A DNA stretch of 34,420 bases from Catajapyx aquilonaris (GCA_000934665.2 JYFJ02004142.1:1-34420); one strand, 5' to 3'. Positions 14,991 to 31,198 are shown, counted from the first letter of the stretch. A program made the numbers and translations. The notes: a model not told the origin generated them from the letters alone.

Positions 14991-17091
14991 CTAGTAGGCA
15001 TGTGCAGCCACAAACAAGTCCTTCCCGGCGGCGGCGCCAACACAGCTCCCAGCCACATACTTTCCAAGAGATGCTTCTCCACAGGCCTGTTCCAAGTGGT
15101 GGGGAAGGAAAGAAGTTTCTCATTAAATCGAAAAACCCTCCAAGAACATTCACTGAAATAATGCATGGTTGCAACTTCAATAATTCATGCATTCACTCGA
15201 GGAGAAAAAACTACAGCGCAGACAAGTGCGGTGAAACAATTAGTGCAACCAAGGAAAAACACAAACAAAAAATTAAACAGTCTGCTGCCATGCAAGAAAA
15301 CTTAGGTGTAACTGATAACAATTAATAACACAAAGATCTTAATTCATTTGGGAAAATGTTGGTTCACTCTCTTTTAATCCCAACAATGCGAAGGCAACTG
15401 TATCGGTGTGCTTCGTTAAGTTTTTGTTATGGACAGCAGACTGGTAGCAAAATAAATTGAAAAAAAGAGCAAGCAATCTACAAACCAAGCATAAGTCCAC
15501 ACATTCTCTCAAAAATAATTGTTGGGGGGTATCAGCAATGCAGTTTAATAAGAGTGTGTGGCCACAAAGTTGGACTTGTCGGCAGCAAGGCTCTTGATCA
15601 AGCCAGGCGTGTACTTGCCCTGGCAGGCCAAACCATTCGCCTAGATGAGGAGTGGGCACGGAAAATTAAGTATTGGACACATGATGCACAACTGAAACAC
15701 ATGGGCTTTGCTGGCGGGAAACCTGCAGAGTGGTCAGCACTTTTCTAGCAAACAGTTGACTGTTAAAGAGACACTCCACTCAAATTTGCATTGCCAAAGC
15801 TCCAGTGCTTTATTCAGCATTTATGCAAATTTGAGTTGCACAAACTGCAGGTCCCCCTGAAAATAATGTAATGTTTCACTTCATGCAACATGATCACATC
15901 CCATGCCATATGCGATATGCCTCCCACCCCTCTAAGTTACCTTAGCACGCTTCAGAAGCTCGTCCTGCCCAGCCTTGACGTTCTCAGGCTTGCCTTGCCA
16001 GGCCCTGAGCACAGAGGCCTGAAGAGCACGGCCGTAGCTGAAGGTCAGCTTCCAGGGCTTGATGAGGGTATTGGCATTGATGGCATTCAAGTGGACAGTG
16101 GCCTCTTCTTCTGACTGCCCACCAGACAAGAAGGTAACTCCAGGGACAGCAGCAGGAACGGTGCGCCTCAGGGCAGTAACGGTGGCACGAGCAACTTCTT
16201 CGGGGGTGAACTTGGTGGGGCATGACTGGCCAGCCATCACCATGTTGGGTTTCAGAAGGGTGCCCTCCAAGTACACGTGGTGGTCTTGCAGAGCCTTGTA
16301 CACGAAGCTCAAGACCGCCTCAGTCACCTAGAAGGAAATGTAATGAGCATTTTTAAAGCCATTTTGAGGGATGGCCAAGGTGCCCAACATCATCCCAGAA
16401 ACACTGTCTTGAGGTGCCCCCTTAAACCTCGAGATACTTGCATCCTGATCTGACAAAATCATTGGCATATCTTACGCACCTTCTGGGCACGATCCAGGTC
16501 ATGCTCTCCATCAGGGAGCACCTCAGGCTCAACAATGGGTACGATCCCATTGGCCTGGCAGATGGAAGCATAACGGGCCAGCACATTGGCATTCTCCAGC
16601 ATGGCGTGGAAGGAGGGAGTGTTGCGCTTGATCTTCAGCACACAACGCCACTTGGCGAAGTGGCACCCATCCTTCTTGTACTGGGCACAGCGCTTGTCCA
16701 GGTCATCCAGGCCCTGGGTGGTGCACTCATCCTCAGACCCAAACAGGTTCACGACTCCCTTGTCCAGCTTGATTCCTGGGATGATGTTGCGCTGACGAAG
16801 CAGCTCAATGAAAGGGGTTCCATCATCAGCCTTCTGGTACACAGTCTCATGGAAGAGGATGACACCAGAGATGTTATCTCCAATCATGGGATCGGTGGCG
16901 AAGAGAAGCTGGCGGTACTTGCGGCGGTTCTCCTCAGTGTTCTCCACGCCAATCTCCGTCAGGCGCTTGCCGCATGTCGTCACAGACTCATCAGCAGCCA
17001 GAATACCCTTTCCGGGTGCAACAATTGCCTCTGCAATCTTGCGCAGCTCCTGCTGCAGTTCTGGAGTGGGGTACTGGAAGTAAGTAGTCAT
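14991..17091 (-). CDS. Ald1: Fructose-bisphosphate aldolase class I, 364 aa, with alternative terminal exons
   Basis: Exons 17091-16480 and 16327-15941, then either 15640-15545 ([31 protein letters not shown]) or 15086-14991 ([31 protein letters not shown]). Motifs: [36 protein letters not shown], the Schiff-base Lys in [21 protein letters not shown] and [10 protein letters not shown]. Confidence 0.97.
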
Positions 17092-19789
17092 GTCGAATGC
17101 TGAAAAGAGGACAGGATGCAAATTATTCCTGCACACTAGGAAGATGGCAACAGTTGATTCCAATCATGTTCCAACAATAAGAACACAAATTCACTGCATC
17201 AGCAGCTGCCACATATGGCATATTCTATAAAAATACATTATATCTCAGAGAGTGCATATGTCCCACCTGGAATAATCACAAGTCAAATAGCAGCCCTGAC
17301 CTTGAACAGGCACAAGGCCACAAGGGCAGACTTCTATTCCTGCAAGCTATAGTTGCACACAAATCCAGATGTCTGGACAGGGAACACTGACACTAGATAT
17401 TGTCTTGTTCAAGGCTACCATTACATGGTGTCACGCAGTAAGGCTCTCAGTACAAGTGATTATTCCCACGCCACCATGTTCTGATATGAAATGACCCACG
17501 CCACTATGCCTTCCCATTTCACGCTACTCCGATTAGATAACAAACTCATTAATGACAACCAATATGTTATATCAAACTGCCTAGCACTGCCAATATCGCA
17601 AGTCCCAAAATATTACAGATGCATAATTACTTGGCGGTTCCACTGAAAATCCTACTGAACAATTACAGCCAGGCAAGAAAGGTCACCCTTTCACCCCAAC
17701 AGCTCCCCTCAAGTCCCATTGACCCCATTTATCTTAACAGTTCTTGTCAGAAAGGGGAGCCCAGTTCAAGGATAGCCTCAACTTCCTCCCCAGACTTCCA
17801 CTTTCCCTGCTCCAAATCAATCTCATTACCCACTTCCCCACATGAATCACACATGAAAGGCAAATATGTTCCAAGTTATTCCACAAACACCATCATATGA
17901 GTATTAACGTTGCCACATATACACTACGATTGAGCAAAACACATTATATGCCATCCCACATCATGGCCTCATTCTCGACACAACCACATTGCCCTTTTGT
18001 TTGACTCCTTTGCATATATAGGTAAGGTTGGCGCAAGGACATTAATATTTAGAGTCTAGGCATGGAGCCAGTATCCTCAAGTAGCCTTGGCCTTCAAACC
18101 ATGTAGGCTAAAAGGAGGATGGGTCGTTGAGCCACGCCACGAACTAGGAAAGGCACCTGAGCAGCTTCCCCAACTCAATGAGACATCACAGGTGTATTGG
18201 AATCAGTTGTATAGGAATGCTCAGGCAGGTTATCTTATCCTGCGTATTTCAAAGTCACCTTTCCTTGCATTTTCAAGGCCGTTCCAATTGGCAACCGCCA
18301 GGAAAACTATGCAATTGTTTCAGAACTGTAAGGCGCTTATGCCGTAACACCCTGATGAGGTCATTAGAATGTTCTTCCTGACTCCTAAGGTCCTTCCTGT
18401 CCATTCTAAAAGTCGTGACCTTAGCAGAGTCTTACATGATGAGGTCCGAGTGCAACATTTGATTCCTTAGTGCAAACTATATCTCGTGCAATAAACTCGG
18501 GGGAATTGCGGCTAATTATATCTCCCATAAAATCAATAAAATTACATGTACCCAGCATTAAAAATTCTCCCAGCAGCAGATTCCTGATTGGTTATCATAA
18601 GTTTTGAGACCTTGGCTCTCATGACATCTTATCAGTTCCATAGTCAAATTCTTCAATTTGAAAGTTCTACTGGGCTAAGTCCCAATTTGACCAATAGCAT
18701 TGCCCATTACAGTCTGACTGTCAATTTACCATGATGCAATGCCTACCTTTACATGCCATCATTTACGGCCATTACTAAATCATTGCCGAGCCTACGTGCA
18801 TGGTGCACTGCGGCGGTATGACTTCACGACAACCCCAAAATGTGCAAACCCCTTCCATATCCCGTTGGTATAATACCGTAAGGGTCTGGTGTTTTGGGTC
18901 TCTCAGGTCCGCAAGCCTCTAGTCGTGCTAAGGATGCAGGTGGCTTTCCGCAGCACCCTGGACACACTTGCTTGGTCTTATCACTGTAACACGACTTGGT
19001 ACAGTTGCAAGGCATATCTCGCCAAGCAAGCCCGTCTCTCCTGCCTGTCTCCTGCTCTCACTTTGTTGTGTTCCAAACACCGGCAACACAACAATGCCCC
19101 CCTCCAACGGTGCCAACCCCATGACAATGCTATGCTTACCGGTTGTGCAGGGTTCAACCTGGGAGAGCGATGCAGGCACGTCCTATCCGATGGGGACTCA
19201 AGGGCGAAGAGGTCGACTCTTTCGGCACGTCACAAGCTCTCCGGAATGGGGGGAAAAAAAAGTGGGGGAGTGGGGAGAGGGTGGGAGAAATTGATATGAA
19301 AAAAAGTGCAGTCGCGTGCCCTCCAGCGGCCACCCACCCAACTAGGCGACTCGATTGTTTCGAGGGCGTTGCCAGAGTTATGGGGTTGGAAGCAGGGTTG
19401 CCGGATGGAGCAGGGTACGCTACAATTCGGGGCTGCTGTGCCAATAAAAGTGCCGACGTCGATACACTCCCGGTGCACTCGGCAGGTACTGTACTGCACT
19501 GGGGGGAGGGCTGGGGGCGGTACCGGTGGCCATACCGGTGCTCTGGAGGAGGGCAGGGGGGCACGTTGTTGTGCGAGTGTGTCAACAGAATATTGTTGTG
19601 AGGTGTCGTTTGCATGGGTTGAATGTACTGCATGGGCATGGCTGTGTGGTGGAATCGGGTCACTTACAAATACAGCAGAATAAAACCTGGCCGGGCACCT
19701 GGCCGTAACGGAAACATTCCTCAACGTGTCGCATGTGACGATTACAACATGAATGTACTCGTCTAAACTGTGCGTGTTTGCAGGCAACG

Positions 19790-20632
19790 ATGAAGGAGAA
19801 GAAGGCCCACAAGCGTCGCAGTCGCTCGTCGTCCTCGTCCGTAACGTCCTCTGGTAGTGGGAGTGATTCGGATGCTGAGAGTAAGAAGAGGCGTAGTCTG
19901 GCGCGGAAGGAGAAGAAGCGTTTGAAGAAGGAGAAGAAGAAGAAGCGCAAGGAGATACGCAGGTTAAAAAAGAGGATCAAGGTTGCAGCAGCAGCCAGGG
20001 ATAGAAAACTTGCCCAGAGTAAGGAGGCATCGGCACCGGCGCCAGCGCCTGAGCCGGAAGTGGCAGCAGGGAGCAGCGGGGTTGATCCCGAGGACCGCCT
20101 GGCCAAAGATGCTGAGGAGGCAACGGGTATGAAGCGGAAAGCCATGGCTCCCATGACCAAAGAGGAGTGGGAGAAGCAGCAGAGTGTGGTGCGCCGGGTC
20201 ACCGACCCAGAAACTGGACGCACCAGGTCACTTTTATAAATGCTATATGAACATGGAATTTCAAAATTTTTGCTGGCTGCTACAAAGTGGCTCTTAAATT
20301 ACTATCCACAACCCACTAGTATGAACTGATCAAAAATTCAAATCCTTTCTTGGAATTTCACTGCAGAATGACAAATGTGCGATTAGGATTCATGATCAAA
20401 GAAGGTTGAAGCCATGGTGTAGCATCTCTATTTTTGTAAAAATATCGACTTGTCAAATTATTATAACTCTCATGCTGTTTATACCCACTGTATTTGCAGG
20501 TTGGTGAAAGGAGATGGCGAGATACTAGAGGAGATTGTGTCTCGTACGCGACACCAGGCAATAAACCGCCAGGCAACATCTGGCGATGGTGCCTATTTCC
20601 AGTCCCAGCTGAATACGCGTGTAAATAAATAA
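19790..20632 (+). CDS. ARL6IP4: ADP-ribosylation factor-like 6 interacting protein 4 (SR-25 family), about 189 aa
   Basis: Exons 19790-20226 and 20500-20632. Ser- and Lys-rich N-terminus, then the conserved [62 protein letters not shown]. Confidence 0.92.
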
Positions 20633-20833: not shown

Positions 20834-23800
20834 TCAAAAGAGTTGTATGAAGTGTGTGGTGGCTCCGTCCCGCCACACTGGATCATCCACCACCTGCGCC
20901 CTGCACATGGGGCAGGTGCGCTCCCGGTCAAACCAGGTTGCCACGCACTCCTCGCAGAAGATGTGCTTGCAATGGAGCATTGTGGGTGTTGCAAAGGAGT
21001 CGTGGCAGATGGGGCATTGGTTGCCAACTGCACTCACTTGCTCCAGTGATGGGCTAAATCCATATTGCTATGAACAAACACTGATTAGTCACTCTTAGCG
21101 CATGTCGTATATGCAGGAATATTTCCAATCAGTTTTCACATATTCAATTGCATGCCATGTTGTAAACTTTTGGATATTAATTTTTCTGTGATGCTAAGTA
21201 ATAAGTTTCCTTGTCAACGTGCAAGAGAGTAATATTTCGTGAAAGTCATCTGCTCCAAGCACAATGTCCATCAATTCTGATTGGCACAAATAAATGTCTT
21301 GCCATTGGAACGGCTGTAGCAAGTTATGCTGCTGGTTGATGCGGAAAACTTACCACATTTTGAAGCAGCTTAAAGGCAGCAGCTCTCCATGCACGAACCC
21401 TCTGGATCAGGTCGCTGCCTTTGGCCATCATGTATGCGGCCACCAAGAGTACACCAACAACTCGACTTGCACCTTCGTAAGCTTCAAACAAGTAATAAAG
21501 CCAGGGGTGGATGGGACACAGGCTGCGGTACAGCTGGGAACTCTCCTCTATAAACAGGTAATATTTGCCCTTGAAATGGAAGAAAAAGAGGGGTCAGACA
21601 CATCTCACCGAACAGCTAACAATGTTCATAAGCTGTACGTACCCTCTTAGGAAATGGTAAGAGGACCTGACTTGGTATGGCCACAATTACCATTTTCAAT
21701 AGTATAGTTATCAGCTTCAGCACATAGTCGGTAATACCAACTACCCACAGAAGGTCCCACACTGACATGTTTTCAAGGTTCGGTGGGAAAAATATCAAAC
21801 TGTAAAGAAGTAACAGAACGTTATCGCTGATGTTTGAAAGTTGCTACTGGACCGCTTACCTCAAGTAAAGCTTCTCCTCCTCGAATATGAAGTAAATGAA
21901 GAGCATACATGCCAACAAGTTAACAGCTACAATGAGCAGGGAGCCCAACTGCCTCTTGCTCTGCTTCCCCACTTCCCTTTTGACTGCTGAATTAGCATGG
22001 CTGAAGGTGACTGCCAGACCCGCAAACACCAGCAAGCCTAGGTAAAATTTGTCAATGGATCATACAAGATCATCACAGAATTTAAATATTATGGCCACTC
22101 CTACTAACCTGTCCTGTGGTCATAAATTCCCTTGGCAAGTAGGATGAGAACAAACGTCACATACTTCTCAAACACATTGAGAACAGCACGTATCTCAGGA
22201 TTCTGTCGCAGTATGTCGGCAGCATTCCCAGTCCGCTCGGCCAGAGTGTTGTTGTTGTTGTTTTGGGCACCCCCATCCCCACCTGCTGCTGCTCCTGCGC
22301 CTCCCTCCCCTGCTTGCACCCCAACCCCAACTCCTCCAGCATTGTTGTGGTCGTTACCATTGGGAACTCCATCCACATCTATCACAAACTGGTTCTCTGG
22401 CAAGTCAGCAGTAGGTGGTTGTGGTTCTGGTGATAATGGTCCATGATTGTGGTGGAGGTGGTGGTGGTGGTGGTGTGTATGGCTCACTGCATCCTGTAGG
22501 AATGACAACCACACGAAATTAGTCACCTGTGTCATTTTCAATATAACATGAAACCAACCATGTTGTTTACAAGCCTTTCCGAACCAAAAATAAGTATAAA
22601 AACAGTGAATTACTGCAATCCCAACGCTTTTTTTTTGGGAGGCCTGTTACATAATCTCATCATCATGTAAATTAACTCCTCATGACATTTCAATTTCCCT
22701 TGCTTATACCAGCCTACTACTTTACACCATTGAGTCATCAGTACGCAGAATCAGCAATTCAACTACTATAATACACACCAAGTACTTCAAGTAGTACCAC
22801 CACTCACAGTATGTCACGGAAATTATTTCAGGCATGATGTTTAGGGAAAAGGAACGTTGCAAGAAATGCTTGAATCGCAAAACCAAACAAAAACACCTCA
22901 AGAACATGATTAGAACTCTTTTTTCTAACTGAACTTTGCAAAGAAAACAGCTGAACACAAAATGTGCCACTATCAGGTACAGCAGTGTAATGGATGTTGT
23001 ATGTTGTATTTCTAGTTCAAGCAATCTCTTCTCTATCTCTATAAATAAGGAAGTTTGTCAGTTTATTTGTCAATTTGGATGTTTGTCCCTTATAGAAATC
23101 CGGGGGAAGGCCCCTACACCGCCTTAAATGAGCATATCGGGAGTTACATTTTTCAAGGAATTTAATGCCGCATGTTTCAGCTTCCGAAAATGAACCTAAC
23201 ACCCATAACACGCATATTCCCAATTAACCAATTATCAATTACCTATTTAACAATATTCATAGATTTCCATGGTAATGCCCTCATTACATTGTAGGCCTAC
23301 CACCATAACAATGACCATAACATACCCGGGCAACTCCGGGTAACCTGCTAGTTTCTAAATAAAATGACTTCTTACTACAGGTCAAGAATGATATTGTTTG
23401 CTTCTTCCTTCAAGGTCAACTTCACAAAAGAAAAAAGCTAACAAACATCTCAGAGGGAAATAACCTGTCACAGGTTTTCCCCTTCAAGTTCTACGCACTG
23501 TAACTTCATTACAAATCAATGAAAGAACATCAACATTTAGAAGTAACAGAACACTTATCCAAACCTTCTTAGGGCCGGTTTCACCGAGCTCAGTATATGA
23601 TAAAACCAGGGTATTTCTCAAAATCCCTATCTATTTGTATGGATTTTCCTAAAGAAACCTGGTTTTATAATATACCAAGCTCGGTGAAACCGGCCATTAG
23701 TCGCATCATTTATTCTCTAATTAGTTGTCCTCCTGGCAAATCAGCCCTACACTCCCCCTTGCTTCACTTAGGCCTTGTCTGTTTGGCTGCTCCAAAATAG

Positions 23801-26176: not shown

Positions 26177-26987
26177 ACACCGCAGGTGAGGTCCTAAATT
26201 TGACCTGTGGATCTGCCAGCGGATTATCTCAACTGCTAAGAATATTTATCGGTTTTCTCCGCTTGTCTCGAGCTGTCCTGTTCCCTTGCACTTACAGATC
26301 CACGGTGGTCCTGGCCATTCCGAAGTGCACCTGATTATGACTACATAGTGACTAATCCTACTCTATTAGTCATTACGAGGTGTGAATAAAGCGCACCGTC
26401 CACCCTGCCGTTAACCTGTGCCTGGCAATCCCTGTCCCTTTGTTCCCCACACAAACCACAACAGCAATAGGCTTATTTACTACACTGATTGTGTGGAATA
26501 GCAGTAGAATGGTGGTGGTGATGCAACACACCTGTTTATACCAGCCTCAAGAGTTCAGGTACCTTCATGCAACGGTTGGCCCTACAGCTGGGCTCCAATC
26601 TCATCCCAAAGGCGCCCACGGATCCTCTTCCTTGGCCCCCTTTTTTTATATGTCTACCCCCACTCCACCTCAGTCAACAGAGAGTACAAAACACAGCTAT
26701 GTCGCCCCCAACAGGAGCCAGTGAAATAAAAACTACGACTCATCCAGTTCAGATCCGGCCCGTCCTACGTCGCTTCGGTCACACCAAAAAAAAAATAAGG
26801 AGGCGGAGTCAAAAAATGGGTCCTTGTGTACAGTGACCTCCGCTGGAAAATTAGTTTTGGAATTAAATTTACAGAAGAAAATTATTAATGTAAGTGAATA
26901 TCTTTTTTTTTGTTCAATCGGGGGTGCGGTGGCAGCCATGTTGTAATTCGGACGCGGCCTCAGCTTCTGAGTCGATCAACAGCGAAA

Positions 26988-27436
26988 ATGAGGCTGACTT
27001 TGATGCTTCTTCGTAAGAGGATGCCGCCAGGAAACATTTGGACAGGGTGAGTGCTACTACTGGAATTGGGATGGGGCGTACCAGAGGACTGCAGATGCAT
27101 GTTTGTCCTGTAGGAAGCATCGCATGATTCCGAAGATCACGGAGAAGGCTCTGGAGAGGGAGAGGGAGCAGATTCGGCTGGAGGAGCGGAACATGTTCTA
27201 CCTCAGGCACCCGTACCTCACTGAGGTAATTATTAGGACATCTCAACAGCTTGATAAGGAATGTGAACATGATGGTTGTGTTGCAGGAACAGGAGAAGGG
27301 GCATGTCGCTGTCACTGGAAAGAGGGAGAGGCAAAGAATAGAGTTGTTGAGCATGAGGCAGCGAGGGAGTCTCAAGCCGCACAGCATGATGGAAGACCAC
27401 CTGTTGCATTTGCGGAGTAATGAGGGGTGGGAATGA
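26988..27436 (+). CDS. MRPL57: Mitochondrial ribosomal protein L57 (MRP63 / mL63), 106 aa
   Basis: Exons 26988-27046, 27114-27225 and 27287-27436 give MRLTLMLLRKRMPPGNIWTGKHRMIPKITEKALEREREQIRLEERNMFYLRHPYLTEEQEKGHV...KPHSMMEDHLLHLRSNEGWE. This matches the MRP63 pattern (W-x-GKHR, PY-x-T-x-EQE-x-GH, D-x-L-x-HL). The ORF track does not show it as one ORF. Confidence 0.9.
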
Positions 27437-27785: not shown

Positions 27786-29865
27786 TTACAAGGTTGCCAG
27801 CTCGTCCTTATTGACAGACTTCCCAATGGCCAAGATCTCGGCCACCTTGGCAGCCAATGGATCTCGGTCCAGGGTGGCTGTGGCCAAGAGCTGGCCATCT
27901 TCGTTGAGAAAGTGTGCAGCGAACTTCATCTCCTTCAGGTTGCCGTCGATTACCACCTCATGGAATCCTGCGTTGTATCCAGCAAAGCGGAGGCTCTTTC
28001 CAAACATAACGGACCAGAAGAACGGGACGCTCTTGATTGCACGATTGTGTCCCAGGGCATTTAAGGCAGCAAGGCGACCATGGGCCAGTGCCATCTGCCA
28101 GTGACCAATGGCCACTCTCTCTCCATCATTTATAAACAACGGAAAAGAAGCTATGTCCCCTGCCGCAAACACATCCGGAACGCTCGTCTTCAGCATCTGA
28201 AAATTAAAGATCACCCAAATTGCTCATGGCAGTTGATTGATAGACAACTACATAAGAGGGTTATACCAACCTCATCAACCACAACATATCTCCTGGAATC
28301 CAACTCAACTCCTGACCCAGCCAAGAAGTCTGTGCTTGGGACAACCCCAACTGCCACAAGGCACAGGTCAGCCTCCACTGGATCCCCTCCTTCAACCTTG
28401 ACCTTCACACCTTCCCCATCCTTTTCAACGCCTTGAACCCTAGCCCCCATCCTGAAGAGGACCCCCTTCTCTTGGTACCATTCCATCAAACGTGATCCAA
28501 TCTCTGCTCCAAAGACTGCTGTAAATGGAACCTTCCCTGGGCCAACCACAGTCACCTCAGATGCCTTTCCCATCAAATAAGCTGCTACTTCCATCCCTAT
28601 AAAGGATGAACCAACAATGGCCACCTTCTTTCCAGATACTTGTGCTGCAATCTTATTGGCATCATCAGGTGTGCGTAGCATAAATGTATTCTCAGCTCCT
28701 TCGATGGACCTGGGGCGTCCTCCCGTTGCAGCAATTAAGACGTCATACTTTACTTCCTCGCCTCCACGTAATTTCAGGGTCTTGGACTGTGTGTCAAGTC
28801 CAGTTGCTTCCTTCCCTAGCATCACCTCGATGTCATAACGCTCGTAAAAGTCGGAGGGTCTGAGAGCAAGCTTCTCAGCTGTGGCATCCAATGCCTTACT
28901 GAGCTTAGGACGGTCATAAGGATAGGCGTCCTCCTTGGTCACCAAAACAACACGACCAGTGAAGCCTCCCTGACGAAGAGCCTCAACACTGGACTGACCA
29001 GCACCACCTGTAGCACAGTAAGGGTTAAAGTTGCTCAACTGCAAATTAATGAAAAGCATGAAATGCCTCTCACCTCCCCCGACTACAACAATGGTCCTGG
29101 TGTTTGCCTTGTCCCTGACAGCCATGGTCTTCATCCGCTTCTCAACCTTCCCCTTGCTCCTGTCCACTTTAACCTTGACTTGTCCCTCGTCATCAATCCG
29201 GACGGAATAACACGGCAAGCTGTCCAGCCCTGGGAAGTCCTCGATGTCACCAGTAGCTGCATTAAAGCAAGCACCATGCCAAGGGCATCGAACCTTCCCA
29301 TTGGCAAGTACACCCTTGGCCAGCGGAGCTCCGTAGTGGGTACATTTGTTTCCAATCGCAGACAGCATCCCATTCTGGTTCACAAGCAATATGCGACCCA
29401 AGTCGTCACCCAGCGGAAGCTCCTTCATCCTAGTAATAACAATGCGGTTAGATACTGTCGGATGTGCATACACCATACGTACTCATTGTCACCAATCTCA
29501 GTTGACTTGCAGACAACATATTCAACCTCATCGTCCATCTTCTTCGTACAACTCCCTGCAAATCACATGTATGTCAGCTTGTATATTCACATAATATGAA
29601 TCTGAAATACCTTTTGTAAGTTTGGCCCCCATTGTAGACACTGTGGATAGATACACAACTTGTAGAGTCTACTCGATCATATCACTTCCAAACACTATCT
29701 GTGACTACCTGCTCTGAAGCACTGATATGAGAGAAGGGCGTGGGCAATTAGAGGATCCCTTCTCCCTATCGACAAGGGAAGGAGGCTGTAGGGACCTTTC
29801 CCCTGCCCCCGATAGAGCGTGCGCCTTAGGATTTGTGGTGAGCGGAAGAAAAGCGCTTTTCGCAT
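27786..29865 (-). CDS. AIFM3: Apoptosis-inducing factor 3-like Rieske [2Fe-2S] / FAD-NAD(P)H oxidoreductase, about 587 aa (532 aa from internal Met)
   Basis: Exons 29865-29709, 29640-29611, 29555-29483, 29429-29074, 29007-28271 and 28196-27786. Has Rieske ligands CTHYGAPL...RCPWHGACF, GDIEDFPGLD, FAD-binding VVVGGGGAG, PYDRPKLSK, ATGG, NAD-binding IVGSSFIGMEVA, VFAAGDIA and SVPFFWS. Confidence 0.92.
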
Positions 29866-30024
29866 GGCAGAACTCAACCGAGGTCAGCCCCCCACTATTT
29901 TTCCCCCTCTCCCCACCTGTCAACACATCAAGGACACAACCAGCCCGACTATTGTCCTGGGTTTGTAACCCCCGCTGGTGGAATATGACTCAATTATTGA
30001 TTGAAAACCAGGCCACTGACATTT

Positions 30025-30050
30025 TTTTGGCGGTGTGACGTCATGGCGCC
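30025..30050. promoter_or_regulatory. CRE with adjacent E2F-like and YY1-like motifs upstream of AIFM3
   Basis: TTTTGGCGG at 30025-30033, TGACGTCA at 30036-30043 overlapping CATGGCG, about 170 bp upstream of the first ATG. Confidence 0.4.
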
Positions 30051-30218
30051 AATATTCGGATGGATGTAGTTCAGGTGGGGCAACACAGATGGAGTTCACA
30101 TCGCCTTTTCGAACAGGCGATCAGATAATTAATTAAATTTAATTATTACAAATTAAATTTATCCAGGCCGTATGAATATGGGCAAGGCCATATTGGGTAC
30201 TATAAAACACAAAAAGAT

Positions 30219-30283
30219 TGTCGCGCTGTATCCGTGTGGTGTCCGTGCGATAGTCGCGGACACCACACGGATACAGCGCGACA
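30219..30283. repeat. Perfect 27-bp GC-rich inverted repeat with 11-nt spacer
   Basis: TGTCGCGCTGTATCCGTGTGGTGTCCG (30219-30245) and CGGACACCACACGGATACAGCGCGACA (30257-30283). Confidence 0.97.
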
Positions 30284-30899
30284 TGCACAGTTGGTAAACA
30301 AACAGGGTGACAAAATCGCAAAACGTGCGTGACCCTGCAGGTCATTGGCACCAGTTCAATCCAGATGTGGTCTGGGAGGAAGGGGTTTGAGGGTTACTAG
30401 ATAATCCTCTAACAGCAGCTAACACTTATTCCATGTGTGAATGGAACTTGTTAATGGCAATCTGTGATAAGCCTGCTGACCTCAACATTGCACTTGTGAG
30501 AGGACACAGTGCATTACTCCGGCCCCTTACCTAATGTATTACCGGATTACGAAACGGTGTAGGACACGCGAAAAAAAATAATGAAAACATTAGAAAAACA
30601 CTTGTTCCAGAACCGCGCCCATAGTCCCTTCCCGTATCTCTAACCCGATCTGATTAATTTGTCACGAGCACACGGATGCGACTGGTTGACACTTGCACTG
30701 CGTAGGTACTACCACTCTCGAAATGTTTGCGATTCCTAGGAATGTTAGTCAAGGACAAGGGGTTGTATGGGCTTGGTTCCGGCCATTCTTTTTTTTAACA
30801 TGTTAAGTCACTGGGGGGCGGATGTGGGTAGGCCAATAGACGTGTGACGTATATATGGGAGCGGTGTTTATGTAACTATCGGATTTGTATATTTTTATA

Positions 30900-31198
30900 G
30901 TCGGCCTTCTGCATTTTCTGTTGGACGATTACCAATAGATGGTCCCAGTACAATTTTTTGGGTACCGTACCGTATATTATCGTCGCAATGTTGTATGGGT
31001 TATGCTTTCTGATTGGTACGCCGGCGACGCTTCAGATTGGCCCCCGTTCTGCGCATGCCCAATGGGGGTGGAGGCAGCGCCTCTGGTGGGTGAGACGATG
31101 AACCATCCATTCGTTCGCTGTCTGCCGGATGGTATACATCGATCCCTCCCTACCCCCGCACCCAGTGAGCGAAGCGAGGGTTTTTCTACGTATTTAGT
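30900..31198 (+). mobile_element. Possible degenerate Helitron-like fragment (3' end only)
   Basis: A GC-rich block ends in CCCAGTGAGCGAAGCGAGGG-TTTTT-CTACGTATTTAGT, resembling a GC-GAA-GC subterminal hairpin followed by a decayed CTAG, then changes abruptly to AT-rich DNA. The 5' boundary is not identified. Confidence 0.35.

Follow-up and report, generated by a model that had tools for sequence, protein, structure and literature searches.

Little is understood of AIFM3, a Rieske flavoprotein that has been reported as mitochondrial, and FSP1/AIFM2 is a myristoylated oxidoreductase of the AIF family. Metabolic labelling, both cell-free and in transfected cells, showed human AIFM3 to be N-myristoylated (Takamitsu et al. 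2015, PMC4550359). N-myristoylation is also described as steering NADH-cytochrome b5 reductase between the endoplasmic reticulum and the mitochondrial outer membrane (PMC2171821), and in yeast PIF1 (bioRxiv 10.1101/2024.01.21.576553) and human ELAC2 (PMC3084753) two in-frame AUGs are reported to flank a mitochondrial targeting signal and to allow dual targeting. Alternative N-termini for dual targeting are a mechanism class that is already well established. Here we analysed the 5′ end of a gene on the minus strand of a 34,420-nucleotide (nt) stretch of Catajapyx aquilonaris DNA (GCA_000934665.2, JYFJ02004142.1:1-34420; the window), which by its domains and homologues is an AIFM3 orthologue. 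The original prediction, made from the DNA letters alone, had proposed two in-frame starts for this gene, ATG1 opening a presequence-type leader and ATG2, on a 30-nt microexon, opening a Met-Gly (MG) N-terminus of myristoylation type. Our analysis points, with a probability of about 45%, to a 5′ end at which the MG form would be the conserved default and a leader-bearing form would be made facultatively, by removal of a 68-nt interval.

The gene has six exons, and joining them at GT-AG introns gave an open frame of 1764 nt encoding 587 residues. Its parts, from 5′ to 3′, and the RNA-derived contig that covers both starts are as follows.

29884..29886, minus strand: in-frame TGA directly 5′ of ATG1, read from the sequence; the first start of the frame is ATG1.
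29709..29865, minus strand: candidate coding part of exon 1 (ATG1 at 29865-29863, 52 codons plus one base, donor CAG/GTAGTC), read from the sequence and covered by RNA.
29641..29708, minus strand: candidate intron 1, a 68-nt GT..AG interval read from the sequence, kept in the sole RNA contig at the site.
29611..29640, minus strand: 30-nt microexon with ATG2 (29632-29630), from the sequence and the family motif, covered by RNA to 29624.
29556..29610, minus strand: candidate intron 2, 55 nt, AAG/GTATTT...TTGCAG/GG, placed by reading frame and homology, with no bridging contig.
29483..29555, minus strand: exon 3, encoding ...GSCTKKMDDEVEYVVCKSTEIGDN, with the third in-frame ATG; its VEYVVC block aligns with homologues and its 3′ 55 nt are in RNA contig record 2.
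29430..29482, minus strand: intron 3, 53 nt, removed in RNA contig record 2 (joint 29428>29482, CT..AC, cut +1).
29074..29429, minus strand: exon 4, Rieske [2Fe-2S] domain, from PF00355 and an RNA contig.
29008..29073, minus strand: intron 4, missing from RNA contig record 2.
28271..29007, minus strand: exon 5, Pyr_redox_2 flavoprotein domain, from PF07992 and an RNA contig.
28197..28270, minus strand: intron 5, likewise missing from RNA contig record 2.
27786..28196, minus strand: exon 6, Reductase_C domain, with the stop codon at 27788-27786, from PF14759 and the open reading frame (ORF).
29624..29887, strand not readable from the contig: RNA-derived contig record 3, 265 nt, depth 7.97, collinear with the genome.

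The domains stood in the order of AIFM3, with Rieske (PF00355, E 9.6e-17, exon 4) at the N-terminal side, followed by Pyr_redox_2 (PF07992, E 9.6e-49, exon 5) and Reductase_C (PF14759, E 5.2e-10, exon 6). A search with the central 423-residue stretch of the protein yielded 7999 candidates, 2164 of them significant. The best 120 of these 2164, to which all counts out of 120 below refer, were 43-51% identical to the query and the named ones were mostly apoptosis-inducing factor 3; the best named matches were AIFM3 (44-51% identity), and the vertebrate homologues listed lay at about 44-46%. The three Pfam domains and the best named matches bore out the AIFM3 identity that had been predicted. The fly AIFM3 gene is presumably CG4199. 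No relative above 51% identity was present in the protein database searched with the 423-residue stretch, and a search of metagenome contigs for close relatives gave 4 loci, the best of them 43% identical over 44 residues.

The 30-nt microexon (29640-29611) lies between ...CCACAG and GTATTT, and its ATG2 lies in the context acaATGg, with A at -3 and G at +4. It codes for MGAKLTK and ends one base into a Gly codon, and joined to exon 3 it gives the start MGAKLTKGSC; coordinates, context and N-terminus agreed with what had been proposed for this exon. By arithmetic, skipping of the 30 nt would be frame-neutral. As a regular expression, MGAKLTK fits the N-myristoylation pattern, which we take to be G-{EDRKHPFYW}-x(2)-[STAGCN]-{P} (PROSITE PS00008). 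Among the homologues, an MG motif stood at the very start in 47/120 and after a leader in 22 more, and the total reached 70/120 when one homologue with MG five residues in was added. Position 6 of these 70 motifs was S in 60 and T in 5 (S/T in 65/70), and position 7 was K in 49; the motif of the window has T at position 6 and K at position 7. These 70 homologues, together with the labelling reported for human AIFM3 (PMC4550359), supported the proposal that the MG start is of myristoylation type and family-like. Judged by its motif, the MG form may be lipidated. As the default product it would start on the 30-nt exon, and removal of Met would expose Gly2 in the context G-A-K-L-T-K, giving a myristoylation-type anchor.

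A third in-frame ATG lies further downstream at 29538-29536 (aagATGg), just before the conserved VEYVVC block in exon 3. The annotated starts of several homologues lie at a comparable place, and a Met is retained in decapods. Initiation at 29538 could conceivably give a third isoform, free of either signal.

At the other end of the frame, ATG1 (29865-29863) lies in the context gccATGc, with G at -3 and C at +4, behind the in-frame TGA at 29886-29884; the stop-to-stop ORF of this leader frame is 29695..29883. Counted up to the second Met, the leader is 55 residues long; 8 of these are Arg, 2 Lys and 1 Asp, and Glu is absent. Reading the minus strand confirmed the position, context, leader length and composition originally given for ATG1. 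With 10 Lys or Arg (K+R) and 1 Asp or Glu (D+E) in 55 residues, and 7 and 0 in the first 25, the leader has a basic, nearly acid-free N-terminus like that of a presequence. By eye, an Arg was found two residues before the junction of exon 1 and the microexon. Processing-peptidase sites have Arg at -2 or -3. A Pfam search of the leader gave no match. We compared the leader with 20000 dinucleotide shuffles of its DNA, of which 2934 (14.7%) stayed open. As indicative figures, 7.3% of the open shuffles had K+R of at least 10 with D+E of at most 1, and 1.4% had K+R of at least 7 with D+E of 0 in the first 25 residues. The latter composition was found in the leader alone among 164 first-ATG ORFs (at least 40 codons, six frames, window). 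On this composition, the leader may direct import into mitochondria.

Whether the leader is joined to the MG sequence depends on the 68-nt interval at 29708-29641. Exon 1 ends at 29709 (CAG/GTAGTC), which refines the earlier coordinates, and removal of the 68 nt leaves phase 1, so that the ATG1 frame runs into the microexon. The acceptor side is pyrimidine-rich (...TATCTATCCACAG) and ends with CCACAG before the microexon, and both the length of the interval and the strength of its donor fall within the range of the RNA-confirmed AIFM3 introns (53-74 nt; donors GTTGGT, GTACGT and GTGAGA). In the spliced form, the ATG1 context is weaker than that of ATG2 (gccATGc vs acaATGg), and the 162 nt between the two starts contain zero ATG in any frame, as was the case in 12.8% of 20000 shuffles; the spliced form would thus have the weaker first AUG and the AUG-free spacer that suit leaky scanning. 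Removal of the 68 nt is permitted by sequence and frame, and the splice may occur.

The same layout was found in other animals. In 14/120 homologues a leader of 24-80 residues ended directly at an internal MG, with summed K+R of 119 and D+E of 11. Chance translation of a 5′ untranslated region (UTR) would be expected to give about two basic residues per acidic one, vs about eleven in these 14 leaders. The 14 leader-bearing homologues came from decapods, cockroach and termite-like insects, a damselfly, a spider, a horseshoe crab, two corals and a hemichordate. Several of these entries are transcript-derived contigs of about 2 kb, and therefore leader and MG are on one mature RNA in those species. 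Two crab leaders were identical at 42/47 positions (hand count from the alignment), and short MG-initiated forms were present in the same or sister taxa of the leader-bearing homologues. In gastropods (P0087, P0097, P0102 and P0113) and ants (P0039, P0067, P0078, P0107 and P0117), either an MG-type start of the form MG-x-x-x-S/C-K or a basic/hydrophobic leader preceded the same downstream sequence, which suggests mutually exclusive first exons in these animals rather than one extended exon. Taken together, the comparison suggests that a layout with two N-termini is widespread in the AIFM3 family. Basic leaders before MG in 14/120 agree with the expectation that related animals carry such a leader; no relative above 51% identity was found with which this particular leader could be compared.

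If the 68 nt are removed, ATG1 would be in frame, ATG2 would be the next ATG after it, and a 587-residue precursor with a basic leader would be made, in which MG would be internal and could not be myristoylated. If the 68 nt are kept, ATG1 would open a 56-codon upstream ORF, and the 532-residue MG form would be made by leaky scanning, reinitiation or use of a downstream transcription start site (TSS). We favour a facultative presequence mainly because the layout recurs across animal phyla, and further because of what the leader is made of, the absence of ATG between the two starts and the resemblance of the 68 nt to an intron in both ends and length.

Several results weigh against this reading. 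One public run covers the stretch, and its library type is not on record; we took it as RNA-derived because its contigs lack five GT-AG introns. Contig record 2 (2274 nt, depth 19.2) has introns 29482-29430, 29073-29008 and 28270-28197 removed and continues into the convergent neighbouring gene. Contig record 3 is unspliced from 29887 to 29624 and holds ATG1, exon 1, all 68 nt and 17 nt at the 5′ end of the microexon. The sole contig over the site therefore keeps the 68 nt, at depth of about 8, while the other three AIFM3 introns were spliced out in the same run. No joint between exon 1 and the microexon was found among the contigs of this one run, which weighs little against the reading because contigs cannot show absence: they carry no strand information and drop rare variants, and a minor spliced form is possible. 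The interval holds TAG at 29697-29695, which ends the ATG1 frame if the 68 nt are kept, and a 3-codon ATG ORF at 29680. On the retained form ATG1 is thus the start of a 56-codon upstream ORF whose stop lies 62 nt before ATG2, and ATG2 opens the main ORF behind upstream ORFs of 56 and 3 codons. The ATG1 frame accordingly closes before the main start on the RNA that was seen, the strand of which is not readable from the contig, and the two AUGs do not share one frame on that RNA, the spliced form being a predicted one. The in-frame splice from ATG1 to the microexon, as originally proposed, is therefore permitted by the sequence but stands against the only RNA contig at the site.

Codon usage of exon 1 pointed in the same direction. 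A codon model was trained on 865 codons from the AIFM3 body and an aldolase gene of the window, that is, on two genes, one of them highly expressed. The full codon log-odds of exon 1 were -10.5 and -15.3, compared with about +30 and +29 for 52-codon coding windows and -4 and -14 for open non-coding windows. Because the amino-acid make-up of a presequence is odd, the score was rerun on synonymous choices only. Exon 1 then scored -16.0, and none of 22 coding windows was as low (mean +13.2, minimum -2.2), while 119 open non-coding windows had a mean of -13.0. When the model was cross-trained (aldolase vs AIFM3, and the reverse), no held-out coding window (0/19 and 0/12) fell to the score of exon 1, which 42-73% of the open non-coding windows exceeded. 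This non-coding-like usage, measured over 52 codons with two training genes, makes it less likely that exon 1 is ordinary coding sequence.

The thresholds of the leader composition were picked after the leader had been seen. As for an amphipathic helix, the maximal hydrophobic moment of the leader was unremarkable, at 0.64 vs a null mean of 0.51, and 17% of the open shuffles reached 0.64. Annotation pipelines prefer the longest ORF, and leader isoforms in the databases are inflated as a result.

The RNA extends far enough upstream for ATG1. The original prediction would fail if all TSSs lay downstream of 29865, which does not hold, as the RNA contig reaches 29887; ATG1 is transcribed if the RNA of contig record 3 is sense. 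Stretches without contig cover are 29538-29623, 29888-29943 and 30187-31008, and these gaps carry no evidential weight. The first runs from within the microexon, through candidate intron 2, to 18 nt into exon 3, and contig records 2 and 3 end exactly 31 nt of spliced mRNA apart. Core-promoter motifs picked by eye (TGACGTCA at about 30045, and Inr-like TCAGTG at about 30028 and 29725) were discarded as too weak for a TSS to be assigned. A low-depth (2.2) RNA contig was also seen upstream of ATG1, at 29944-30186. If its RNA is sense, some AIFM3 leaders would carry extra upstream ATGs at 30101, 30044, 30022 and 29928.

The alternative that survives best, and that we regard as a real possibility short of even odds, is that exon 1 is 5′ UTR only. 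The 68 nt would then never be removed, the 56-codon upstream ORF would damp or otherwise regulate translation of a sole, MG-initiated AIFM3, and both the presequence look of the leader and the possible in-frame splice would be coincidental. What speaks for this is that the 68 nt are kept and codon usage is non-coding-like: the contig is collinear over 29887-29624 with the ATG1 frame closing at 29697-29695, and exon 1 is indistinguishable in codon usage from open non-coding windows. Moreover, three GT lie near the end of the ORF, which makes one in-frame donor not very improbable, and MG is annotated as the start in 47/120 homologues. This alternative would however have to explain a first stretch of 25 residues with 7 basic and 0 acidic ones, matched by 0/163 other ORFs of the window and 1.4% of open shuffles, as well as the good acceptor and intron-typical length of the 68 nt. 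It also sits poorly with the ATG-free spacer between the starts in the spliced form, and with the leader-before-MG layout in 14/120 homologues of several phyla and the amino-acid conservation between crabs.

It is improbable that the leader form is constitutive, with the 68 nt as a normal intron, the contig as unspliced precursor and MG as an ancestral leftover that never serves as a start here. Going downstream from the contig end at 29887, ATG1 is indeed the first ATG to be reached, and its -3 base is a purine; the 68 nt have canonical intron ends and typical length, and long isoforms are annotated in other species. Against this, the 68 nt are present in RNA at depth of about 8, whereas the other three AIFM3 introns are absent from all contigs; ATG2 has a strong context and the full myristoylation-type motif (T6, K7); the ATG-free spacer fits leaky scanning; and codon usage of exon 1 is non-coding-like. 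Finally, there is little to recommend the idea that the RNA over 29624-29887 is antisense or promoter-associated and that AIFM3 mRNAs start further downstream, giving the MG form or the form from 29538 (MDDEVEYVV...): the strand cannot be read from the contigs, aagATGg is a strong context for the third ATG, several homologues are annotated from just before the VE-x-VVC block and decapods keep a comparable Met, but the antisense ORF at 29718-30035 (plus strand) has no Pfam match, nothing positive speaks for an antisense transcript, and the MG motif of the microexon is homologous to the family start, so that transcripts must include the microexon.

A facultative leader form beside a default MG form, at the odds given at the outset, thus remains our reading of this locus. 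The sequence features that the original prediction described are real; its interpretation as a dual N-terminus is supported in part, and the presequence isoform is unproven. The broader claim, that AIFM3 carries an ancient, metazoan-wide switch between a matrix presequence and an N-myristoyl anchor, set here by removal or retention of the 68 nt, appears to us unlikely. If it were true, removal would fuse the presequence and bury the glycine, and retention would give an upstream ORF and the lipid-anchored form. If invertebrate genes encode both forms, this would reconcile the mitochondrial reports with the N-myristoylation of the human protein and give a genetic handle, through ATG1, ATG2 and G2A mutants, on the site of action of the enzyme. 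In the literature searched, which consisted mostly of papers outside subscription journals, no description of a presequence/myristoyl pair of N-termini for AIFM3 was found, and neither AIFM3 nor myristoylation is mentioned in the main text of PMC11974929, on start-codon selection and mitochondrial isoforms.

The window holds further genes and elements around AIFM3. Two perfectly matching 27-nt arms, 11 nt apart, form an inverted repeat at 30219-30283, about 350 nt upstream of ATG1, that occurs once in the window. It had a match in 0/100 shuffles and matches no Rfam family, and it could be a hairpin-forming element or a small transposon remnant; a Rfam search of the whole window gave 0 matches at gathering scores. 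Downstream, a convergent plus-strand gene at 26942-27420 codes for a protein with an MRP-63 (mitochondrial ribosomal protein 63) domain and has RNA-confirmed introns at about 27046-27112 and 27224-27284. One unbroken RNA contig runs from this gene into the 3′ end of AIFM3, and the two transcripts therefore overlap tail to tail. A class I fructose-bisphosphate aldolase gene lies at 14994-17091 on the minus strand, with at least 3 coding blocks; over the first 205 residues it shares 84% identity with a hemipteran aldolase, and its best matches are from insects and crustaceans at 80-85% identity, so that the source is most probably a pancrustacean arthropod of a thinly sampled lineage. Other features are a Lys/Arg/Ser/Glu-rich exon of SR-25 (nuclear RNA-splicing-associated) at 19739-20236 on the plus strand, a C3HC4 RING-finger exon at 20834-21067 on the minus strand, and a His-, Asn- and Gly-rich ORF at 22104-22646 on the minus strand.

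Compared with described systems, the protein of the window shares with human AIFM3 (AIFL), as presented in PMC4550359, the order of Rieske, Pyr_redox_2 and Reductase_C domains and the Met-Gly start; the human gene differs in that no upstream presequence-type start was found described in the literature searched. There is also a likeness to annotated long isoforms of invertebrates, for example cockroach X1 (P0003), shrimp X1 (P0007), crab X1 (P0034), lobster X2 (P0047), horseshoe crab X2 (P0042) and the corals P0070 and P0112, in which a basic, acid-poor leader of 24-80 residues ends at MG-x-x-x-S/T upstream of the Rieske domain. These differ in being database models or transcript contigs, and their leaders have no detectable similarity to that of the window. 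NADH-cytochrome b5 reductase and FSP1/AIFM2 resemble the predicted MG form as flavoprotein oxidoreductases whose location is set by an N-terminal myristoyl-glycine, and differ in having one N-terminus and no alternative presequence start. In PIF1 and ELAC2, as they are reported, the first AUG gives the form with the presequence and the second the form without it, and the weaker first context and the lack of an intervening AUG would hold here too if the 68 nt are spliced out. The locus differs from both in that the shared frame needs removal of 68 nt that are kept in the RNA seen, and in that its second start would add a lipid anchor.

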